Shown here piece by piece: positions 1,185-13,555 of a stretch of 64,000 nucleotides of DNA. How positions within the stretch are numbered: the first letter of the stretch is position 1; the number at the start of each line of letters is the position of its first letter. Both the position numbers and the translations under genes were made by a program. The stretch lies in assembly GCF_030013205.1 (NCBI RefSeq), contig NZ_CP122648.1. One strand, written 5' to 3'. The notes beneath the pieces were generated by a model that was given only the letters and a program-made list of their open reading frames with translations, made no database searches and was not told the DNA's origin. This DNA is from Escherichia coli. Its GTDB lineage: Bacteria; Pseudomonadota; Gammaproteobacteria; Enterobacterales; Enterobacteriaceae.

Positions 1185-2141
1185 TCAGTGCTGCTGCAAA
1201 AAGTCTTCAATGTCAGCCAGTGAGGATATCCCTTCCATCGGACCTTGCCGCATTACGGCGAGCGCGCCGCTGGCATTTGCATATTGCAGTGCCTTATGTG
1301 CCGGGAAACCGGATAAGAAAAGAGTGATAAACGTTGCGCCAAAGCAGTCGCCTGCACCCGTTGGATCGATAATTTCGATATCGTGGCCTGTAACATGCTG
1401 GGCGTGTAATGTACCGTTTTTAAGCTTGTAATAGCTGGCCCCACGCTGGGCGCGTTTTATCGCCACATGTTTTACGCCGCCGTGGAGAAGATCGCTAACA
1501 ATCTGTTCTTCTGACAGATTTTTGTGACGCGCGAAGAAAGGGAGTTCGCTTTCGCTGGGGATAAAAATATCCGTATATTCAATCAAATAATCGAGAGCCT
1601 GCGCCATTTCAGGAATACTCAGCATCTCTTTGCGAATATTGGGATCGAAAGAAACGGTGCCGCCAGCCGATTTGATCGTCGTTATTGCTTTACGCATGAC
1701 ATCGATCATGCGAAATGAGAACAATGATGAGCCCACAATATGCAGATGGTTACACTGTTTTAGCAGATCCTTATCAATGTGCTCAGCAGTAAACAAACCG
1801 CAGGCGCTGTTAGGGATATTAAAGACGAAATCCCGCTGCTGGGGATTTTGATAACTCACGAATGCCGTACCTGTTACGGCATTGTTCATAACATGGATCC
1901 CATCGGTAATGACACCTTCATGACGGAGACGCTCTATAATGAGTCGGCCAAAATCATCATTACCAACACATCCGAAGAAGATGGCCCGATGGGACAGTTT
2001 TGCCACCTGAGCAGCAAAAATTGCTGGTGCACCGCTGGGAAATGGCCCGATAAACTCCCCAGGCTGAGTGAATTTTTGATGTGGGTTGCGGGACAAAAAC
2101 TCGGCCAGCAATTCGCCCATAGAGCAGATAGTTATTGTCAC
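1185..2141 (-). CDS. PfkB-family carbohydrate kinase, KdgK-like (islet kinase A)
   Basis: ORF 1185..2195; contains the PfkB signature DPTGAGDCFGATF and an N-terminal IGE..E / GPFPSGAPAIF region; paralogous to the kinase at 7676-8638. Start chosen as the GTG at 2141 preceded by AGAGGGG; the upstream ATG at 2195 would overlap the regulator gene by 44 nt. Confidence 0.8.
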   Translation of the reverse strand: MTITICSMGELLAEFLSRNPHQKFTQPGEFIGPFPSGAPAIFAAQVAKLSHRAIFFGCVGNDDFGRLIIERLRHEGVITDGIHVMNNAVTGTAFVSYQNPQQRDFVFNIPNSACGLFTAEHIDKDLLKQCNHLHIVGSSLFSFRMIDVMRKAITTIKSAGGTVSFDPNIRKEMLSIPEMAQALDYLIEYTDIFIPSESELPFFARHKNLSEEQIVSDLLHGGVKHVAIKRAQRGASYYKLKNGTLHAQHVTGHDIEIIDPTGAGDCFGATFITLFLSGFPAHKALQYANASGALAVMRQGPMEGISSLADIEDFLQQH

Positions 2142-2151
2142 AAAACCCCTC

Positions 2152-2982
2152 TCATTCCTGAAGCCTCTCGCGATTGGACCAAGTAAAGCACTCATTACTG
2201 GTATAAAGGATAACGAAATCAGCCGACTGCAATTGTTGCTGATATTGTTCGTTAATGCTGCGGCTGACGATCACATTTTCTGCCTGATGCAAATGCCCGA
2301 TAGCAGCCGTTGATGGCGCAGGATCGGCGGCAACGATAACTGTCTTATTCTGGGCATGATCGAAACAGAGCTGCCAGGCAGCGGCAAGTCTGGGAACGTT
2401 GATATTTAAAGTACCATCAGCATCCAGATGGCTGATTTCCAGAATGCTGTGTGTAATGGTGAAATGCTGAAGTGCCTGTTCGAGCGGTTTTCCGGCCAGT
2501 GCGGTGTCGGGGCGCAGCATTTCACTGCCAGCCAGTATTATTTCGCCATCAATAAACTGATTTGCCAGCAGCGCATGTTCGGGATCGTTGGTGATCAGAC
2601 GCAGTTTTTTCACTTCGCTGAGCAAGGGAATGATCTTACGACAGATTGTCCCATGTCCAAGAAATAGCGTGTCACGATCCCGAATTAACCGTGCGCAATG
2701 TCGTGCTATTTCCATTTGTTGTGCCAGAGACAATGGCGCGATCGGTTGTATCGCTTCTGGTTCAGAGGAGAGTGGTGTCGCAATAGCACCGCCAAATGAT
2801 CGCTTTAAATATCCCTGTTGCTCCAGATAACTGAGATCGCCGCGGATCGTCACGCCAGAGACACCAAGTTGCGCAGATAAGTCATCAACTTTGATTTCAC
2901 CCTGGGCGGCAACAATTTCTGCAATTTTTAATCTGCGTTTCAGTAGGTTAGACGATTTTCTCGGCACGTTAACACTCTTCAT
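2152..2982 (-). CDS. DeoR-family transcriptional regulator (HTH plus sugar-phosphate-binding domain)
   Basis: 276-aa ORF; N-terminal segment RLKIAEIVAAQGEIKVDDLSAQLGVSGVTIRGDLSYLEQQGYLKRSFGGA resembles the DeoR/GlpR/AgaR HTH; co-directional with and immediately upstream of kinase A. Confidence 0.8.
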   Translation of the reverse strand: MKSVNVPRKSSNLLKRRLKIAEIVAAQGEIKVDDLSAQLGVSGVTIRGDLSYLEQQGYLKRSFGGAIATPLSSEPEAIQPIAPLSLAQQMEIARHCARLIRDRDTLFLGHGTICRKIIPLLSEVKKLRLITNDPEHALLANQFIDGEIILAGSEMLRPDTALAGKPLEQALQHFTITHSILEISHLDADGTLNINVPRLAAAWQLCFDHAQNKTVIVAADPAPSTAAIGHLHQAENVIVSRSINEQYQQQLQSADFVILYTSNECFTWSNRERLQE

Positions 2983-4178
<1,196 letters not shown>

Positions 4179-4213
4179 GACGTTGTACCCTACAAAAACA
4201 ATGAGGATTGTTT

Positions 4214-5104
4214 ATGAAAAATATTAAATTACTTGGTTCAGCTATGTTGGTGAGCCTGGCATTGTTCTCGCCAAGTTCGTTGGCAAAAGAGTATAAAATT
4301 GGTGCGTCATTATTAACACAGCAACATCCTTTCTATATCGATCTTGCGAATGCCATGAAAGAAGAGGCAAAAAAAGACAATGTCAATTTAAGTGTCTCTA
4401 TTGCCAATCAGGATTTAAACAAACAACTTTCTGATGTTGAGGATTTTATTACTAAAAAAGTGGATGCCATTATTATCTCTCCGGTCGATTCGAAAGGCGT
4501 CCAGGCGGCGATAATTAAAGCCGATAAGGCCGGTATTCCCGTTATCACCGTCGACGTTGCTGCGGAAGGCGTTCCGGTCGTATCGCACGTTGCGACCGAT
4601 AACTATGCGGGAGGCGTTGAAGCAGGCAAGTTAATGGGCAAACTTTTGAATGGTAAAGGTACTGTAGCCATTATTTCTTATCCGGCACTACAATCGGTGG
4701 TTGCGCGCGTTGATGGTTTTAAGAAAGGGTTAAGCGAGACACCGGATATTAGAATTGTTGCTGAACAGCCTGGTATTACGCGGGCTGAAGCGTTAACGAC
4801 TGCGCAAAACATTATGCAGGCCAACGCCAACCTGAATGGTCTGTTTGGCTTTGGTGATGATGCGGCGTTGGCAGCGGTTATCGCAGCGAAATCTGCGCAT
4901 AACGACAACATCAAAATCATTGGTTTTGACGGCATGAAAGAAGCGCGTGATGCCGTTGACAGTGAAAAAACGTTTGCGGCCGTGATTCGGCAATATCCCG
5001 ATCAAATGGGTGCTAAAGCCATTGATGCCGCTGTTGATCACCTCAATGGTAAACCGGTAGAAAAAATGATCCCGGTACAACCCGGCGTTTATACAGGTAA
5101 ATAG
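4214..5104 (+). CDS. periplasmic sugar-binding protein of an ABC importer (RbsB-like)
   Basis: ORF 4208..5104 trimmed to the ATG at 4214 (GAGGA RBS at 4203-4207); N-terminal signal peptide MKNIKLLGSAMLVSLALFSPSSLA; overall resemblance to ribose-binding protein. Confidence 0.8.
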   Translation: MKNIKLLGSAMLVSLALFSPSSLAKEYKIGASLLTQQHPFYIDLANAMKEEAKKDNVNLSVSIANQDLNKQLSDVEDFITKKVDAIIISPVDSKGVQAAIIKADKAGIPVITVDVAAEGVPVVSHVATDNYAGGVEAGKLMGKLLNGKGTVAIISYPALQSVVARVDGFKKGLSETPDIRIVAEQPGITRAEALTTAQNIMQANANLNGLFGFGDDAALAAVIAAKSAHNDNIKIIGFDGMKEARDAVDSEKTFAAVIRQYPDQMGAKAIDAAVDHLNGKPVEKMIPVQPGVYTGK

Positions 5105-5164
5105 TAAACATCTTCACCTCACAACAAAACGTTATTGGCGTTTTGTTGTGACACCGAGGTCATT

Positions 5165-6664
5165 ATGACGGATGTTATTCTTGATGTTTCGCATATTGCG
5201 AAGACATTTGGTCATGTTCAGGCATTAAAAGATATTACCCTCTCTTTACGTAAAGGGCGGGTGCATACTTTATTAGGCGAGAATGGTGCCGGTAAATCGA
5301 CATTAATGAAAATACTCGCTGGTGTTTATCCGCCAACCCAGGGAACGATAATACTACGTGGTGAAACCATCACCATTAATAATCCGCAGCATTCTCGCCA
5401 GTTAGGGATTGCGATTATTTTTCAGGAACTGAGCCTGAGTAATAATATGACCGTGGCGGAAAATATTTATGCCAATAATGAACCGCGACGTTTTGGCATT
5501 ATTAACGATAAAAAAATGCTCGCAGATTGCCAGAATCTCCTCGCGGAACTGGGCATCCCACTGGATCCGCTGGAAATGGTCGGCAATATGTCGATGGCAC
5601 ATAGGCAACTGGTAGAAATTGCCAAAGCCTTAAGCTATGCAGCGGATGTCGTGATTATGGATGAACCGACATCTTCGCTAAGTGATAATGAAGCAGAGAT
5701 TCTGTTTAACATTATTGAAAAATTAAAGCAGCGAGGCTGTGCGGTTATTTATATCTCTCATCGCATGGATGAAATTATGCGGATTTCAGATGATATTTCG
5801 GTGATCCGCGACGGTGAGTATATCGCCACGCATGAAAAGAAAAACAGTGATATCCAGCATTTGATTGCCCAAATGGTTGGTCGGGAAATGAAAAATATTT
5901 GGCCAGCACGTCTTGGGGAAAAACCGGATGAAAATGTTCCTGCAAAACTGGAAGTAAAAAATCTTTCCCATCCTTCGCTTTTTAAAGAGGTCAGTTTCGC
6001 TGTGCGTCCGGGGGAGGTCCTCGGATTTTTTGGCCTGGTGGGGGCCGGGCGTTCCGATGTGATGAAGGCGCTATTTGGCCTCGTTTCGTATCAGGGGACT
6101 GTGTTGATTGATGGTAAGGAAGTCAGGATCGCTAATCCCAAACAGGCTATTGATCATGGCATTGCTTTTGTGACCGAAAACCGCAAGGAAGAAGGGTTAG
6201 TGCTGATGCACGACGTCAATATGAACACGCACCATGTGGCGTTTCAATATAACGCTTCGCGGATGGGACTCATTAATCACCGACAAGAAGAGGCGAAGAC
6301 GCTGCAATCAATTGCCAGAATGAACACTAAAGTGAGTTCTGTACATCAGGCAGTGGGAGCGCTGAGCGGCGGTAATCAACAGAAAATCGTGTTATCGAAG
6401 TGGCTGGAGAAAACTCCGCGTATTTTATTGCTCGATGAGCCAACGCGCGGAGTGGATGTCGGCGCAAAATTTGAAATCTATAACGTGATACGTCAACTGG
6501 CTGCGGCAGGGACAGCAATTATTCTGGTGTCCTCTGAACTGCCAGAAGTCATGGCACTTAGCGATCGTCTGGTGGTAATGCGTAATAAAACGATTGCCGA
6601 TATTTATTCATGTGAAAATTTAACGCAGACACAGGTAATGACCGCTGCAACAGGAGTACGTTAA
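5165..6664 (+). CDS. sugar ABC transporter ATP-binding protein with two fused ABC domains (RbsA/MglA-like)
   Basis: ORF 5135..6664 trimmed to the ATG at 5165 (GAGGT upstream). First Walker A GENGAGKST; second domain has LSGGNQQK signature and LLLDEPTRGVD Walker B. Confidence 0.85.
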   Translation: MTDVILDVSHIAKTFGHVQALKDITLSLRKGRVHTLLGENGAGKSTLMKILAGVYPPTQGTIILRGETITINNPQHSRQLGIAIIFQELSLSNNMTVAENIYANNEPRRFGIINDKKMLADCQNLLAELGIPLDPLEMVGNMSMAHRQLVEIAKALSYAADVVIMDEPTSSLSDNEAEILFNIIEKLKQRGCAVIYISHRMDEIMRISDDISVIRDGEYIATHEKKNSDIQHLIAQMVGREMKNIWPARLGEKPDENVPAKLEVKNLSHPSLFKEVSFAVRPGEVLGFFGLVGAGRSDVMKALFGLVSYQGTVLIDGKEVRIANPKQAIDHGIAFVTENRKEEGLVLMHDVNMNTHHVAFQYNASRMGLINHRQEEAKTLQSIARMNTKVSSVHQAVGALSGGNQQKIVLSKWLEKTPRILLLDEPTRGVDVGAKFEIYNVIRQLAAAGTAIILVSSELPEVMALSDRLVVMRNKTIADIYSCENLTQTQVMTAATGVR

Positions 6665-7654
6665 ATGACAGAGAAAACTCTTGCCAGTCCGAAACCTTCG
6701 GAAATTCCCATTGCAAATAATTTTAAAAAAGTCTTCAGGCAATATGGCGGTATCCTCAGTGGAATGGTGGTGTTAATCATTCTGTTCAGTTTTATTAATG
6801 ACAGTTTTTTTACCGCCAATAACATTACTAATATTATTCTTCAGGTTTCGATAATTGCAATTACCGCCTATGGAATGACTTATGTACTTTTGCTTGGCGA
6901 TATTGATTTATCGGTTGGTTCAACCATTGCATTGATTGGCACATTTGCTGCGCTTGGGGCTTCATGGGGAATTCCATTTATTTTATTGGTCCCATTATCC
7001 ATTATTGCAGCACTGGCTCTGGGGATGATAAATGGTGGCTTGACGGCTATAGCGGGGATCCCGTCGTTTATTGTCACCGTTGCTACTATGGGGATCTTCC
7101 GTGGTATCGCTTATATAGTGACCGATGGTATGCCCATCATGATTAAAGATGATGCCTTTCTGGCGCTGGGGAATGAAGAATTTCTCTATATACCTATTCC
7201 TATCTGGATATTAATCATCTTATTGCTGATTAACCACTTCATTCTTACTAAAACAACCTTTGGACGAAAAATTTATATCACTGGTGGTAATAAAGAAGCG
7301 GCAGTTTATTCAGGGATAAATGTCACCCGCTTGAAAATTAAAGTCTTTATGATTACAGCCGTGCTGGCAGGTATCAGCGGGATGATCCTCGCGTCACGCC
7401 TCTATTCCGGGCAACCGAATTCCGCGTTGAGCTACGAACTGGATGCTATTGCTGCGGCTGTACTGGGAGGCACCAGCCTGAACGGCGGCTATGGAACCGT
7501 GGTGGGGACGGTGATCGGCGCATTAACCATCGGCGTTATTAATAATGGCATGAACTTAATGAATGTTCCCTATTTTTACCAGATGGTGGTTAAAGGATTA
7601 GTCATTCTTGTAGCCGTTTATTTTGACGTAAGAAATAAAAGAAAACGCAGCTAA
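6665..7654 (+). CDS. sugar ABC transporter permease (RbsC-like, single membrane component)
   Basis: 329-aa highly hydrophobic ORF starting 1 nt after the ATPase stop; consistent with a monosaccharide ABC permease. Confidence 0.85.
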   Translation: MTEKTLASPKPSEIPIANNFKKVFRQYGGILSGMVVLIILFSFINDSFFTANNITNIILQVSIIAITAYGMTYVLLLGDIDLSVGSTIALIGTFAALGASWGIPFILLVPLSIIAALALGMINGGLTAIAGIPSFIVTVATMGIFRGIAYIVTDGMPIMIKDDAFLALGNEEFLYIPIPIWILIILLLINHFILTKTTFGRKIYITGGNKEAAVYSGINVTRLKIKVFMITAVLAGISGMILASRLYSGQPNSALSYELDAIAAAVLGGTSLNGGYGTVVGTVIGALTIGVINNGMNLMNVPYFYQMVVKGLVILVAVYFDVRNKRKRS

Positions 7655-7675
7655 TCATTTCAAGGAATTAATCAT

Positions 7676-8638
7676 ATGAGTAAGGTCTTCACAATTGGAG
7701 AAATTCTGGTTGAAATTATGGCGAGTAAAATCGGCCAGCCATTTGATCAACCAGGTATCTGGAACGGCCCTTATCCCAGTGGCGCACCCGCTATTTTTAT
7801 CGACCAGGTGACACGTCTTGGCGTTCCGTGCGGCATCATTAGCTGTGTGGGGAATGATGGCTTTGGTGATATTAATATACATCGTCTGGCTGCTGACGGT
7901 GTGGATATCAGGGGGATTTCAGTCTTACCTTTGGAAGCTACCGGGAGTGCCTTTGTTACTTATCATAACTCTGGCGATCGCGATTTTATTTTTAATATCA
8001 AGAATGCCGCTTGCGGTAAATTATCGGCGCAGCATGTTGATGAAAATATTCTGAAGGACTGTACCCATTTTCATATTATGGGTTCATCCCTGTTTTCATT
8101 CCATATGGTAGACGCAGTAAAGAAAGCGGTAACCATTGTAAAAGAGAATGGTGGCGTTATTTCTTTTGACCCTAATATTCGGAAAGAGATGCTCGATATT
8201 CCAGAAATGCGTGACGCCCTCCACTTTGTTCTTGAGTTAACAGATATCTATATGCCCAGCGAGGGAGAAGTGTTGCTCTTGTCGCCACACTCGACACCGG
8301 AGCGTGCAATCGCTGGTTTTCTTGAAGAAGGTGTTAAAGAGGTGATTGTGAAGCGCGGCAATCAAGGTGCCAGTTACTACTCCGCGAATGAGCAGTTTCA
8401 TGTTGAGAGCTATCCGGTGGAAGAAGTTGACCCGACTGGTGCGGGAGACTGTTTTGGTGGCGCGTGGATTGCCTGCCGCCAGCTAGGGTTTGACGCCCAT
8501 CGGGCATTACAATATGCCAACGCCTGCGGTGCACTGGCGGTAACCCGACGTGGCCCAATGGAGGGAACGTCTCGCCTTGCGGAAATCGAAGCGTTCATCC
8601 AGCGCCATGACATGTCCATTCGGGAAGCAGCACAATGA
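7676..8638 (+). CDS. PfkB-family carbohydrate kinase, KdgK-like (islet kinase B)
   Basis: 320-aa ORF; N-terminus MSKVFTIGEILVEIMA and GPYPSGAPAIF, C-terminal DPTGAGDCFGG signature; shares long identical stretches with kinase A (e.g. SFDPNIRKEML.IPEM, MGSSLFSF). Confidence 0.85.
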   Translation: MSKVFTIGEILVEIMASKIGQPFDQPGIWNGPYPSGAPAIFIDQVTRLGVPCGIISCVGNDGFGDINIHRLAADGVDIRGISVLPLEATGSAFVTYHNSGDRDFIFNIKNAACGKLSAQHVDENILKDCTHFHIMGSSLFSFHMVDAVKKAVTIVKENGGVISFDPNIRKEMLDIPEMRDALHFVLELTDIYMPSEGEVLLLSPHSTPERAIAGFLEEGVKEVIVKRGNQGASYYSANEQFHVESYPVEEVDPTGAGDCFGGAWIACRQLGFDAHRALQYANACGALAVTRRGPMEGTSRLAEIEAFIQRHDMSIREAAQ

Positions 8639-9681
8639 AAAACGAAATTTGGTCGTGGATTGGCGATCTCTCGCAGGTTGCCGGAATTAAACACTATGAG
8701 TTACGTAGTGGCAGAGCAAAGGGGACAGAAGCGTTTGATGTCCGTACTGGTGCGGGACTGGCATTTACGGTGGTAAAAGATCGCGCGCTGGATATTGCAT
8801 GGGCCAGCTACAAGGACACTGCGCTCTCTTTTATCACCCCCAACGGCATTGTCGCCCCCGCTTTTTTTGAGTCTCATGGCAACGGGTTTTTACGTAGCTT
8901 CTACGCGGGGTTACTGACTACCTGCGGACTTAGCTACATTGGCACGCCCTGTGAGGATGACGGAGAAACGCTGGGGTTACACGGGCGTTTGGCTGCGACT
9001 CCAGCAGAAGAGGTGGGGTATCGCACAGAACGGACCGACGACGGCATTGAATTTGTCATCAATGGCAAAGTACGGGAAACACGATTGTTCGGTGAAAATC
9101 TGACGCTGGAAAGGACCATTCGCTGCCGTTATGGCGAAAATGTGCTGCGCATTGAAGACAAGGTGACTAATCATGGTTTCACCCGCCAGCCGCTGCAAAT
9201 TCTTTATCACTTTAATTACGGCTGGCCTTTATTATCGCCACAGGCAGAAATCTTGCTGTCGGCTAAAAGCGTAACGCCACGAACCCCGCATGCGGCGGAA
9301 GGGTTAACCAGTCATCTGGAGATTTGTACCCCACAGCCCGGTTTTGACGAGCAAGTTTACTATCTCACGTTGAATAGCGACAGTCAGGGGATGAGTAAAG
9401 TTGCGCTGGTGAACGCCGAACTGGGGTGGGGAATTTACGAGAAATTCGACACCATGCAGCTACCCAACTTTATCCAGTGGAAAAATTTAGGCGCGGGTGA
9501 ATATGTTATGGGGCTGGAGGTCAGCAATAGTTTTCCTGACGGTCGTGATAAAGAACGAGCGCAGGGGCGTCTGCCCTTTATAGAGCCAGGGGAAACAAAG
9601 ACATACTGCTTTGAGCTGGGAATTGTTGATGGCGATGCTGAAATTAGCGCGTTGAAAGCGGAAATTGCAAGCTACCGTTAG
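8635..9681 (+). CDS. galactose-mutarotase-like (aldose-1-epimerase superfamily, possibly DUF4432) protein of unknown function
   Basis: 348-aa ORF whose ATG overlaps the kinase B stop (ATGA). Contains a YHFNYGWP motif; the family assignment is from pattern memory and is not verified. Confidence 0.6.
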   Translation: MKNEIWSWIGDLSQVAGIKHYELRSGRAKGTEAFDVRTGAGLAFTVVKDRALDIAWASYKDTALSFITPNGIVAPAFFESHGNGFLRSFYAGLLTTCGLSYIGTPCEDDGETLGLHGRLAATPAEEVGYRTERTDDGIEFVINGKVRETRLFGENLTLERTIRCRYGENVLRIEDKVTNHGFTRQPLQILYHFNYGWPLLSPQAEILLSAKSVTPRTPHAAEGLTSHLEICTPQPGFDEQVYYLTLNSDSQGMSKVALVNAELGWGIYEKFDTMQLPNFIQWKNLGAGEYVMGLEVSNSFPDGRDKERAQGRLPFIEPGETKTYCFELGIVDGDAEISALKAEIASYR

Positions 9682-11132: not shown

Positions 11133-11603
11133 TTACTCGATGACGACCAGCGGCTCGTCAAATTCTACCGGTTGTCCACTTTCGACCAGAATTGCTTTCA
11201 CGGTACCGGATTTGTCCGCTTCGATCTGGTTCATCATTTTCATGGCTTCAACGATGCACAGGGTATCGCCCACGTTGACTTTCTGACCCACTTCGATGAA
11301 CGCTTTCGCGTCCGGGCTTGGGGTGCGGTAGAAAGTACCAACCATCGGGGAACGTACGATGTGACCACTGATTTCCGCTGCTGCTGGCGCTTCCATTGAA
11401 GGAACGGTCGCCGGAGCGGCTGCGTTAGATTGAGCTGGCTGCTGCATCATTGGTGCAGCGTAAGCTTGTTGCATCACAGGGAAACTTGCGGCAGGAGCTG
11501 CACGGCTAATGCGTACTGACTCTTCGCCTTCAGAAATTTCCAGTTCGGAGATGCCTGATTCTTCAACCAGCTCGATCAGTTTTTTAATCTTACGAATATC
11601 CAT
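11133..11603 (-). CDS. accB: biotin carboxyl carrier protein of acetyl-CoA carboxylase
   Basis: 156-aa [25 protein letters not shown]... with the biotinylation motif [10 protein letters not shown]. Confidence 0.95.
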
Positions 11604-12580
11604 GAGTGGGTTCCGTACTCTTTGTTTAGTGTGATTGTGACAGGCGTTTCACCGCCGTCTGTAAAGCGTATGCCCCGACAGCTGTATGCATAGCGATAAA
11701 TTCCAGCAGGCCGGGACGCCGGTCTATTTTGCCCCAGAGTGTCAATGTTAGACTTGACGGACATTGTGCAGCGATCTGCTGCTATCCTCCGGCAAAAAAC
11801 AAAATATACCTTCGTTGCGCCAATGTCACCTTTTCCGCAGCGCAAAAACTGCGTCAGGGAGGACGAGGTCGCACATTATAACGATTTCGTAGCAATTGGC
11901 AGCTAAATACTGGTCTTATCAGGGAAGATAATCAACAGCTAACATGTAAATAACCTTCAACACCGTGTAATTTGCAACAAGCCGCACAATTCACGAAATT
12001 AGCGCCATCATCGACGGAACTTCTTATAACGTAAGGTGAAAAGCTGTAAAGCCAGCCCTGCGAAGATGAGGGGCTGCAATGAGATAATCTTCACAGACCA
12101 CAAATAATGTAGGGATGCCAGGATCGCGACAAGATAGACGACATTACGCAGCGGTTGCTGAGGATTACGCAATTTTCACTTCATCGTCTGGATAGATGTG
12201 AATGCTAAAGCACGCAAAATCAACCGTCTGACAATGCTCAGCATCAAATACGTTCGAGTGGTTAATTTGTAGGCAAATAAAATCAGATTATTCACCCCAT
12301 GGTACCAGAAATCAGTAACAGGTTAAGCGTAGCGTCGCCCAGGCAAAGCACCATAAACCTAACAGGCGACGGAGGCGTATCAATAATGGCTGTTTAGTGG
12401 AGTAACAGTGCGCATCAATTTATGGTCAGTCGAAATCATGACTTTCCAGTTTGGATGATGTTGTACAACTTCATGACCAAGATGTTCGACGAAAGCTGTC
12501 CGGCTAACCGCTTTTCCCGTTAACCGATTGAATAATGGTTTCAAAATGAGTTCCCTCTCTTATTAATCCTTGCTAAATGG

Positions 12581-13555
12581 TTAGTTAACCTTCACCAGCG
12601 TGCGCCCCTGGATCTGGTTATTAATGATGGCCTCGGCAAACTTCGGTGCCTCTGCCAGAGATATCTCTTGTGCCGCCTGGGTATAGAATGATTCCGGTAA
12701 ATCGGCGACCAGTCGCTGCCAGGCTTGTGCGCGGCGTGCTGGTGGCGTCATCACTGAATCCACCCCCTGTAAACGGACATTACGCAGAATAAATGGCATG
12801 ACCGTGGTTGGCAGAGTAAAACCACCCGCCAGACCACAGGCCGCCACGCAGCCGCCGTAATTCATTTGCGCCAGCACTTTCGCCAGCACTTTGTCGCCAA
12901 CGGTGTCAATTGCCCCAGCCCAGAGTTGTTTTTCCAGAGGACGGGATTCGGCAAACTCATCGCGAGAGAGAATACGGCTGGCTCCTAAACTTTTCAGATA
13001 TTCATGGGTACTTTCGCGACCAGAAACGGCAACGACCTGATAACCCAACTTATGCAGCAGCGCCACGGCGGTACTGCCGACGCCACCACTGGCACCCGTC
13101 ACGACAATCTCCCCATCCTGCGGGCGAACACCGGCATCTTCCAGCGCCATCACACACAGCATGGCGGTAAAACCGGCAGTACCGATAATCATTGCTTTAC
13201 GCGCGTCCAGCCCTTGCGGCATGGCAACCAGCCAGTCACCTTTCACTCGCGCCTGTTCCGCCAGCCCCCCCCAGTGGTTTTCACCAACGCCCCAGCCAGT
13301 GAGTAATACGTCCTGACCGGCATGAAAACGCGGATCTTCGCTGGTGCGTACAGTTCCGGCAAAATCGATCCCAGGAATCATCGGAAAATTACGGATGATT
13401 TTTCCCTTACCGGTAATCGCCAGCGCATCTTTGTAGTTCAGGCTCGACCAGTGAACATCAACCGTGACATCGCCCTCCGGCAGGCAACTTTCGTCCAGAG
13501 TCTTTACCGATGCGAGAGTTTTGCCGTCCTGCTGTTCTAAAAGTAACGCCTGCAT
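12581..13555 (-). CDS. acuI: acrylyl-CoA reductase / quinone-oxidoreductase-family protein AcuI (YhdH)
   Basis: 324-aa ORF MQALLLEQQDGKTLASVKTLDES...; MDR zinc-independent oxidoreductase fold; expected position next to csrD. Confidence 0.9.
   Translation of the reverse strand: MQALLLEQQDGKTLASVKTLDESCLPEGDVTVDVHWSSLNYKDALAITGKGKIIRNFPMIPGIDFAGTVRTSEDPRFHAGQDVLLTGWGVGENHWGGLAEQARVKGDWLVAMPQGLDARKAMIIGTAGFTAMLCVMALEDAGVRPQDGEIVVTGASGGVGSTAVALLHKLGYQVVAVSGRESTHEYLKSLGASRILSRDEFAESRPLEKQLWAGAIDTVGDKVLAKVLAQMNYGGCVAACGLAGGFTLPTTVMPFILRNVRLQGVDSVMTPPARRAQAWQRLVADLPESFYTQAAQEISLAEAPKFAEAIINNQIQGRTLVKVN

Follow-up and report, generated by a model that had tools for sequence, protein, structure and literature searches.

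Probable relics of three genes around the accBC promoter and leader in the acuI-accB gap of Escherichia coli

The gap between acuI and accB

The window analyzed here is a 64,000-nt stretch of an Escherichia coli genome (contig NZ_CP122648.1 of assembly GCF_030013205.1). On its minus strand, acuI (yhdH) is followed by a gap of 977 nt (11604-12580) and then by accB and accC. The gap is core E. coli sequence, at least 80% of it being carried by 5420 of the 5426 complete E. coli genomes, and it is 100% identical in several swine ETEC strains. An earlier reading of these letters, the original prediction, described nearly 1 kb free of open reading frames (ORFs) of 60 aa or more except for one overlapping accB, and this description is accurate: only an 89-aa ORF (11576-11845, minus strand) touches the gap. 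The prediction also pointed to a 54-codon minus-strand frame that starts with TTG and is preceded by the motif AGAGAGGGA, and both were found where it had placed them, the motif at 12560-12552, 7 nt 5′ of the TTG and ~20 nt past the acuI stop codon. Automated annotation by PGAP is inconsistent at this locus. Depending on the strain, it calls nothing, a hypothetical protein or, in several strains, a YedZ pseudogene, and the gap of a strain identical to the window carries zero annotation. The features assigned to the gap and its edges are as follows.

11133-11603, minus strand: accB, biotin carboxyl carrier protein, the downstream edge of the gap (ORF call; annotation of K-12 and of an identical strain)
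11604-11866, minus strand: 5′ leader of accBC, ~263 nt (published start site)
11626-11764, minus strand: aroQ relic, with the ATG at 11764-11762, ~90 nt of drifted sequence, and the last 15 codons plus TAA at 11672-11626
11868-11936, minus strand: promoter block, with CTGATAAGACCAG at 11922-11910, the -35 hexamer CTGCCA at 11902-11897 and the -10 hexamer TATAAT at 11880-11875 (nine-genus alignment)
12008-12401, minus strand: yrdE′ (K-12 b4646), assigned by tblastn, DNA identity and collinearity as a relic of msrQ codons 68 to ~197
12380-12544, minus strand: the 54-codon frame, composed of yrdF′ and seven out-of-frame codons in the msrQ relic, then a stop
12402-12544, minus strand: yrdF′ (K-12 b4697), codons 1-47 and a further 2 nt of a DUF1444-like gene that is otherwise deleted
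12552-12560, minus strand: Shine-Dalgarno-like AGAGAGGGA, the native ribosome-binding site of the DUF1444-like gene
12581-13555, minus strand: acuI, acrylyl-CoA reductase, the upstream edge of the gap (ORF; acuI in an identical strain, yhdH in K-12)

The frame and its neighbor are already known in K-12 as the pseudogenes yrdF and yrdE, and the long accBC leader is known as well. Both pseudogenes are on the list of a 2020 paper (PMC7648144). They occupy the same positions as the relics of the window, with no indels between K-12 and the window, and the window allele differs from them by point substitutions only, such as S3P, I46T and D47V. As K-12 yrdF maps to 12544-12402, it begins at the frame's own TTG. 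The RefSeq record of K-12 lists yrdF and yrdE without a product name or a parent gene; the parents were identified in this analysis.

Farther downstream, at ~1187-9681, the window harbors an 8.5-kb sugar-utilization island between accC and yhdT, where K-12 has accC followed after ~100 nt by yhdT-panF and no such island. It encodes a tagatose-bisphosphate-type aldolase, an ABC sugar transporter, two sugar kinases, an aldose 1-epimerase and a DeoR regulator, and two of its genes are frameshifted.

yrdE, yrdF and the 54-codon frame

MsrQ (YedZ) is the heme-binding membrane subunit of the MsrPQ periplasmic methionine sulfoxide reductase. When the gap was searched by tblastn with K-12 MsrQ (E = 3e-39), residues 69-95 and 101-195 aligned to 12395-12315 and 12298-12014 in different frames, with amino-acid identities of 89% and 64% in the two segments. 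Over ~390 nt, the DNA is 77% identical to K-12 msrQ and 78% identical to the msrQ that Escherichia L006 has at this locus, with which the window is collinear from msrQ codon 68 through to accB (12397-11560). This is not an intact gene, as no uninterrupted frame of ~199-211 codons exists. Codons 1-67 are absent, stops occur at codons 95, 141, and 197, a net +1 frameshift lies near 12301-12295, and Arg stands in place of His91 and His151. The frame-corrected translation scores 91 bits against the NCBIfam MsrQ equivalog NF003831, below the cut-off of 130, and 16 bits against PF01794 (Ferric_reduct), below the cut-off of 28. The partner gene msrP is missing, with no match to MsrP found in the gap.

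The position of this relic is that of msrQ in most of the order. An AcuI scan using one genome per species gave 80 loci from other Enterobacterales, and the order acuI-msrP-msrQ-(aroQ)-accB was present in ~75 of them, including those of Citrobacter, Salmonella, Klebsiella, Enterobacter, Yersinia, Erwinia, and Pantoea. Two Escherichia lineages among them (L004 and L006) keep an intact msrPQ between acuI and accB. These two were deposited as E. coli yet are separate species representatives; they do not carry the DUF1444-like gene, and their AcuI proteins are 95-96% identical to that of the window.

Because the relic is ~77-78% identical to both the K-12 and the L006 msrQ, its orthology rests on position and collinearity rather than on a tree, and on these grounds we identify yrdE as the remains of the resident msrQ. 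An old label, "yedZ paralog", reflects a different origin, in which yrdE would be a horizontally acquired or duplicated msrQ paralogue that was inserted at this place, and not what is left of a resident msrPQ. Such an origin would suit the presence of a working msrPQ elsewhere in K-12 and the identity of only 77%, but it leaves unexplained why the relic sits at the place of msrQ in ~75 other species, collinear with the following spacer and accB. Moreover, the other E. coli allele of the locus has a relic of the msrP 5′ end in the right place, and a related contig reads acuI, DUF1444-like gene, msrP. A paralogous origin is therefore improbable, and descent of yrdE from the resident msrQ is the reading that we retain.

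The 211-aa MsrQ proteins of E. coli and E. albertii have a C-terminal tail (LRSLFNRLRKQV...) that is missing in the 199-aa MsrQ of other genera. The K-12 tail, LRSLFNRL, resembles the N-terminus of yrdF, LKSLFNRL (L003 5060-5119, the 3′ end of K-12 msrQ, versus L085 1858-1900). A relocation junction in the K-12 MsrQ tail was considered and rejected, as the local DNA alignment scored 22 against 18.7 ± 2.4 for shuffles, which is not significant.

The parent of yrdF is a different gene. At the E. albertii locus, the same start codon opens an intact ORF of 271 aa (L005 7012-7827), which makes this ORF the true parent gene. Identity between yrdF′ and E. albertii is 96.7% up to 12402, where the 271-aa ORF runs on, and identity to E. 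coli ATCC 8739 is 97.5%, a 276-aa gene running on there; for the latter, PGAP annotates the same 36-nt spacer and TTG start. Since the intact homologs continue past 12402, the 54-codon frame consists of 47 inherited codons and seven more that lie in the wrong frame of the msrQ relic. The window and the DUF1444-like gene (WP_000838307.1, WP_000202360.1) have these 47 codons, the TTG start and the ribosome-binding site in common, and the window retains 17% of the gene. The 855-nt remainder of the gene is found in 670 of the 5426 complete E. coli genomes (~12%), including ATCC 8739 and O26, O103, and O111 strains, and PGAP labels the intact 276-aa product either a hypothetical protein or a DUF1444 domain-containing protein. 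An alternative parentage, suggested by a by-eye N-terminal likeness to both MsrP and MsrQ, was discarded, as 12580-12398 has no DNA homology to intact msrPQ loci.

The family to which this gene belongs is narrow, comprising 11 protein clusters only. Pfam DUF1444 (PF07285) matches at 17-18 bits, below the gathering threshold of 23.8 but across profile positions 15-254 of 264, and this sub-threshold match is present in five of six family members. At the N-terminus, the family alignment shows no variation at K2 and N6-V13. Searching the PDB with a profile of the protein returned no match, and its AlphaFold2 model, with a mean pLDDT of 53, was too poor for a fold search. Distant homologs sit among plasmid-like or mobile genes, e.g., KfrA_N and Aca2, which points to a mobile origin of the inserted gene. 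Separately, an 817-nt metagenome contig (L084) joins a serine-recombinase-like N-terminus to the 3′ part of yrdF′ at HPNWKV. Its upstream 440 nt have no match in any complete E. coli genome, so the contig is probably a chimeric assembly, the alternative being an unknown insertion.

The length of the frame is what chance would give. Dinucleotide-preserving shuffles of the gap yield a mean of 3.0 ORFs of at least 54 codons, where three are observed, and their longest ORF has a median of 81 codons, where 55 are observed. The presence of the frame is therefore, by itself, without weight. The original prediction, which left it undecided between a small protein and an untranslated leader, proposed to judge it by its conservation in related genomes and by synonymous versus non-synonymous change, and both comparisons go against a small protein. 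Outside E. coli, the start codon either opens a gene of 271-277 aa or is absent. The pN/pS ratio is 0.72 for the 47-codon stump in K-12-type alleles, an estimate from 46 codons, few substitutions, and a small sample, versus 0.12 for acuI and 0 for accB among 10 E. coli. The intact DUF1444-like gene, with a pN/pS of 0.15 between E. coli and E. albertii, is under purifying selection, whereas the stump is not, and the 54-codon frame evolves nearly neutrally. Nucleotide diversity in E. coli tells the same regions apart: it is 0.031 in yrdF′ and 0.040 in the msrQ relic, as against 0.015 in acuI and 0 to 0.004 in the promoter and leader, and it reaches 0.076 in the last seven codons of the frame, the most variable part of the gap.

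Searches with the frame led back to the same gene. Against 1.84 billion representative proteins, phmmer returned 11 proteins at an E-value of at most 0.001. They are mostly stumps or truncated alleles of this gene, together with one full-length member (P0142, 277 aa), and three of the matches are low-identity partial alignments to much longer proteins. No independent small protein was present among the phmmer and database matches, which are otherwise E. coli hypothetical ORFs, and a literature search found no report of a YrdF product.

It is very unlikely, then, that the frame encodes a functional small protein, that is, an N-terminal fragment of the DUF1444-like protein co-opted after truncation. 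The retention of AGAGAGGGA and TTG, the absence of a predicted terminator between acuI and the frame, its length of 54 codons in nine of the ten sampled K-12-type strains, and the hypothetical protein that PGAP calls in at least one genome (strain S1-THA-01-A) could all be taken in favor of such a product. However, the ribosome-binding site and the start codon were both inherited from the full-length gene, which ~12% of E. coli have in place of the stump, and the other marks of a small-protein gene (a length beyond chance, a frame and length conserved in relatives, and purifying selection) are lacking. The length itself varies: the frame exceeds 81 codons in the tenth sampled strain, and the protein database holds called versions of 54, 55, 61, 65, and 77-92 aa, alleles other than the 54-codon one ranging from 55 to at least 92 aa. 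The frame is better described as the 5′ stump of the 276-aa gene extended into an out-of-frame msrQ relic, and the doubt with which it had been put forward was justified.

This does not mean that the stump must be silent. With its ribosome-binding site and start kept and no predicted terminator following acuI, the stump may plausibly be translated at a low level into a 54-aa peptide, for example via read-through from acuI. If made, the peptide would in all likelihood be a by-product without a selected function, although nine of the ten K-12-type alleles preserve a length of exactly 54 codons along with the TTG and its ribosome-binding site, which counts against this view.

The accBC promoter, leader and aroQ relic

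The expectation that the gap must hold the accBC promoter and a long leader was correct, as a conserved -35/-10 pair and a published start site agree. The promoter block (11936-11868) is invariant across nine genera and has no segregating site among 10 E. coli. It contains a sigma-70 promoter composed of CTGCCA, a 16-nt spacing, and TATAAT (promoter scan, 10 of 12). A genome-wide start-site map places an accB start at -263 (~11866), with seven reads and the same hexamers (PMC2760140, supplement 3). No terminator-like site was predicted anywhere in the gap, and the predicted fold of the leader RNA is unremarkable (z = -1.6). The palindrome CTGATAAGACCAG, centered ~50 nt before the start site, resembles FadR operators and is a candidate FadR box. 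Li and Cronan reportedly described an unusually long accBC leader in 1993. A reported leader length of 313 nt, longer than the mapped one, disagrees with the -263 start site.

The unusual length of this leader, together with the possibility of acuI read-through offered by the lack of a predicted terminator, might suggest that the whole gap is an untranslated accBC leader or regulatory RNA made from a promoter just downstream of acuI, but this is highly improbable, as the mapped start at -263 comes right after the sole strongly conserved -35/-10 pair, the region upstream of 11937 is high-diversity relic DNA where other genera have an intact msrPQ, and Rfam has no match in 12000-12580. For the same reason, the 54-codon frame is not part of the untranslated accB leader, as had been suggested, since the promoter and start are over 500 nt farther downstream. 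Within the gap, function resides in the accBC promoter and leader, and what lies upstream of ~11937 is decaying DNA.

Within E. coli, the whole 404 nt preceding accB is almost invariant. Where the msrQ relic ends with its stop codon, diversity falls sharply from 0.03-0.04 (12008-12544) to 0-0.004 (11604-12007), and the low-diversity stretch takes in the section of the aroQ relic in which genera differ freely.

The early leader is also where an Rfam model finds a weak match. RF02764 (Ysr190, Yersinia sRNA 190) scores 25.3 bits (E = 0.39) at 11801-11900 on the minus strand, against a gathering threshold of 66, whereas in Yersinia (L072 8931-9032) it scores 130 bits just upstream of aroQ, at the matching position. 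The site, i.e., the -10 region and early leader, is thus the same in both, although E. coli is not a member by the Rfam criterion. As the model begins inside the -10 region of the aroQ-accBC promoter and covers the first leader nucleotides, it probably describes a fragment of a 5′ UTR and not an independent sRNA gene.

The leader itself contains the two ends of a lost gene. In other Gammaproteobacteria, aroQ, coding for the type II 3-dehydroquinate dehydratase, precedes accBC; E. coli relies on the type I dehydroquinase AroD. The window has the promoter block, the aroQ start position, the last 15 codons, and the 22-nt spacer in common with these aroQ-accBC clusters, but ~105 aroQ codons (~315 nt) are missing and the reading frame is broken. 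Compared with Raoultella (L018), which encodes an intact 157-aa AroQ, window 11941-11744 is 82% identical over 198 nt to 8711-8907, covering the region upstream of aroQ and its first 14 codons, and window 11672-11565 is 98% identical over 108 nt to 9293-9400, a block that runs from the last 15 aroQ codons and the TAA across the 22-nt spacer into the accB start. The C-terminal AroQ peptide of the relic is identical to that of Raoultella. Homology at both ends and the conserved position before accB establish descent from aroQ, while an intact frame of ~150 codons is excluded, as the ATG part and the last 15 codons are in different frames.

The msrQ-accB spacer accordingly falls into two classes, ~709 nt in most genera, with aroQ, and ~394 nt in Escherichia, Salmonella, Citrobacter, the Klebsiella oxytoca complex, and Superficieibacter, the difference being 315 nt. 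A near-full AroQ match was present in 53 of the 80 loci. The Klebsiella oxytoca complex (L015-L017, L068) is aroQ-less, in contrast to Raoultella and most other genera (L018-L023), which keep the gene; this distribution could reflect a single deletion followed by transfer, or two events. Among the more recent papers searched, none was found that links aroQ to the E. coli accBC leader, and the aroQ fossil in the leader may be new.

Proposed history and meaning of the locus

With high probability, the gap consists of what is left of three decayed genes, together with a single working promoter and the accBC leader. How it came to this state can be traced in part from the alleles that coexist in E. 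coli. The K-12-type junction is carried by 4747 of the 5426 complete genomes (~87%), including the window. The window and ATCC 8739 alleles share 12640-12402 and 12300-11560. Only the window allele has 12401-12301, which corresponds to msrQ codons 67-100, and only the ATCC 8739 allele has a stretch of 856 nt, made up of the remainder of the DUF1444-like gene and 86 nt left over from the msrP 5′ end. As each allele contains unique DNA, neither derives from the other by one deletion, and at least two independent deletions are required; both alleles descend from the order acuI, DUF1444-like gene, msrP, msrQ, accB. The intermediate predicted by this comparison was found in a metagenome contig (L097), which encodes AcuI (90% identity), the DUF1444-like protein (77% identity), and then the N-terminus of MsrP. 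Further deletion variants were seen, e.g., P0137 and L091. The working msrPQ of K-12 and E. albertii adjoins hprRS-hiuH (hprSR-hiuH-msrPQ-zinT in E. albertii), and since E. albertii has the hiuH-linked msrPQ as K-12 does, this second copy probably predates the split of the two species.

From these data, we infer the following order of events. The ancestral Enterobacterales arrangement would have been acuI-msrP-msrQ-aroQ-accB-accC. The lineage of Escherichia, Salmonella, and Citrobacter would first have lost ~105 aroQ codons, which would leave the old aroQ promoter ~263 nt before accB and so explain why the accBC leader is of unusual length. Next, a DUF1444-like gene obtained by horizontal transfer would have entered between acuI and msrP in an ancestral Escherichia. 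A working copy of msrPQ would have been established beside hiuH and hprRS before the split between E. coli and E. albertii, and the msrPQ of the acuI locus would subsequently have been destroyed by at least two independent deletions. The K-12-type deletion would begin at codon 48 of the DUF1444-like gene and end at msrQ codon 67, and the 54-codon frame would be the stump that it left.

What this analysis adds is small: it names the gene from which yrdF derives, identifies yrdE as orthologous to the resident msrQ (as judged by synteny), and describes the coexisting deletion alleles and the aroQ fossil. The history of the locus leaves our understanding of how any system works unchanged. It does hold a lesson for annotation, as a ribosome-binding site and start codon that survive on the stump of a gene can mimic a small-protein gene.

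From a biological perspective, msrPQ appears, in the lineage of E. coli and E. albertii, to have departed from its ancestral site next to accBC. This departure fits the observation that msrP is under different two-component systems in E. coli and Salmonella (PMC10083560), and the loss of the resident msrPQ after the appearance of the copy on the hiuH/hprRS side may explain the difference. A joint reading, in which the accBC leader of E. coli, Salmonella, and Citrobacter is a domesticated aroQ fossil and the loss of msrPQ lies behind the difference in msrP regulation, is tentative, and we consider it somewhat doubtful as a whole. If it is true, the aroQ promoter, start region, last 15 codons, and spacer would have been kept nearly as they were, for signals that accB expression needs, and candidates for such signals may be AccB autoregulation, growth-rate control, or translation initiation. 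Independently of this joint reading, a lost aroQ is the probable source of the distant promoter and long leader of accBC in E. coli. The ancestral locus was inactivated by different deletions, which still coexist in the species.
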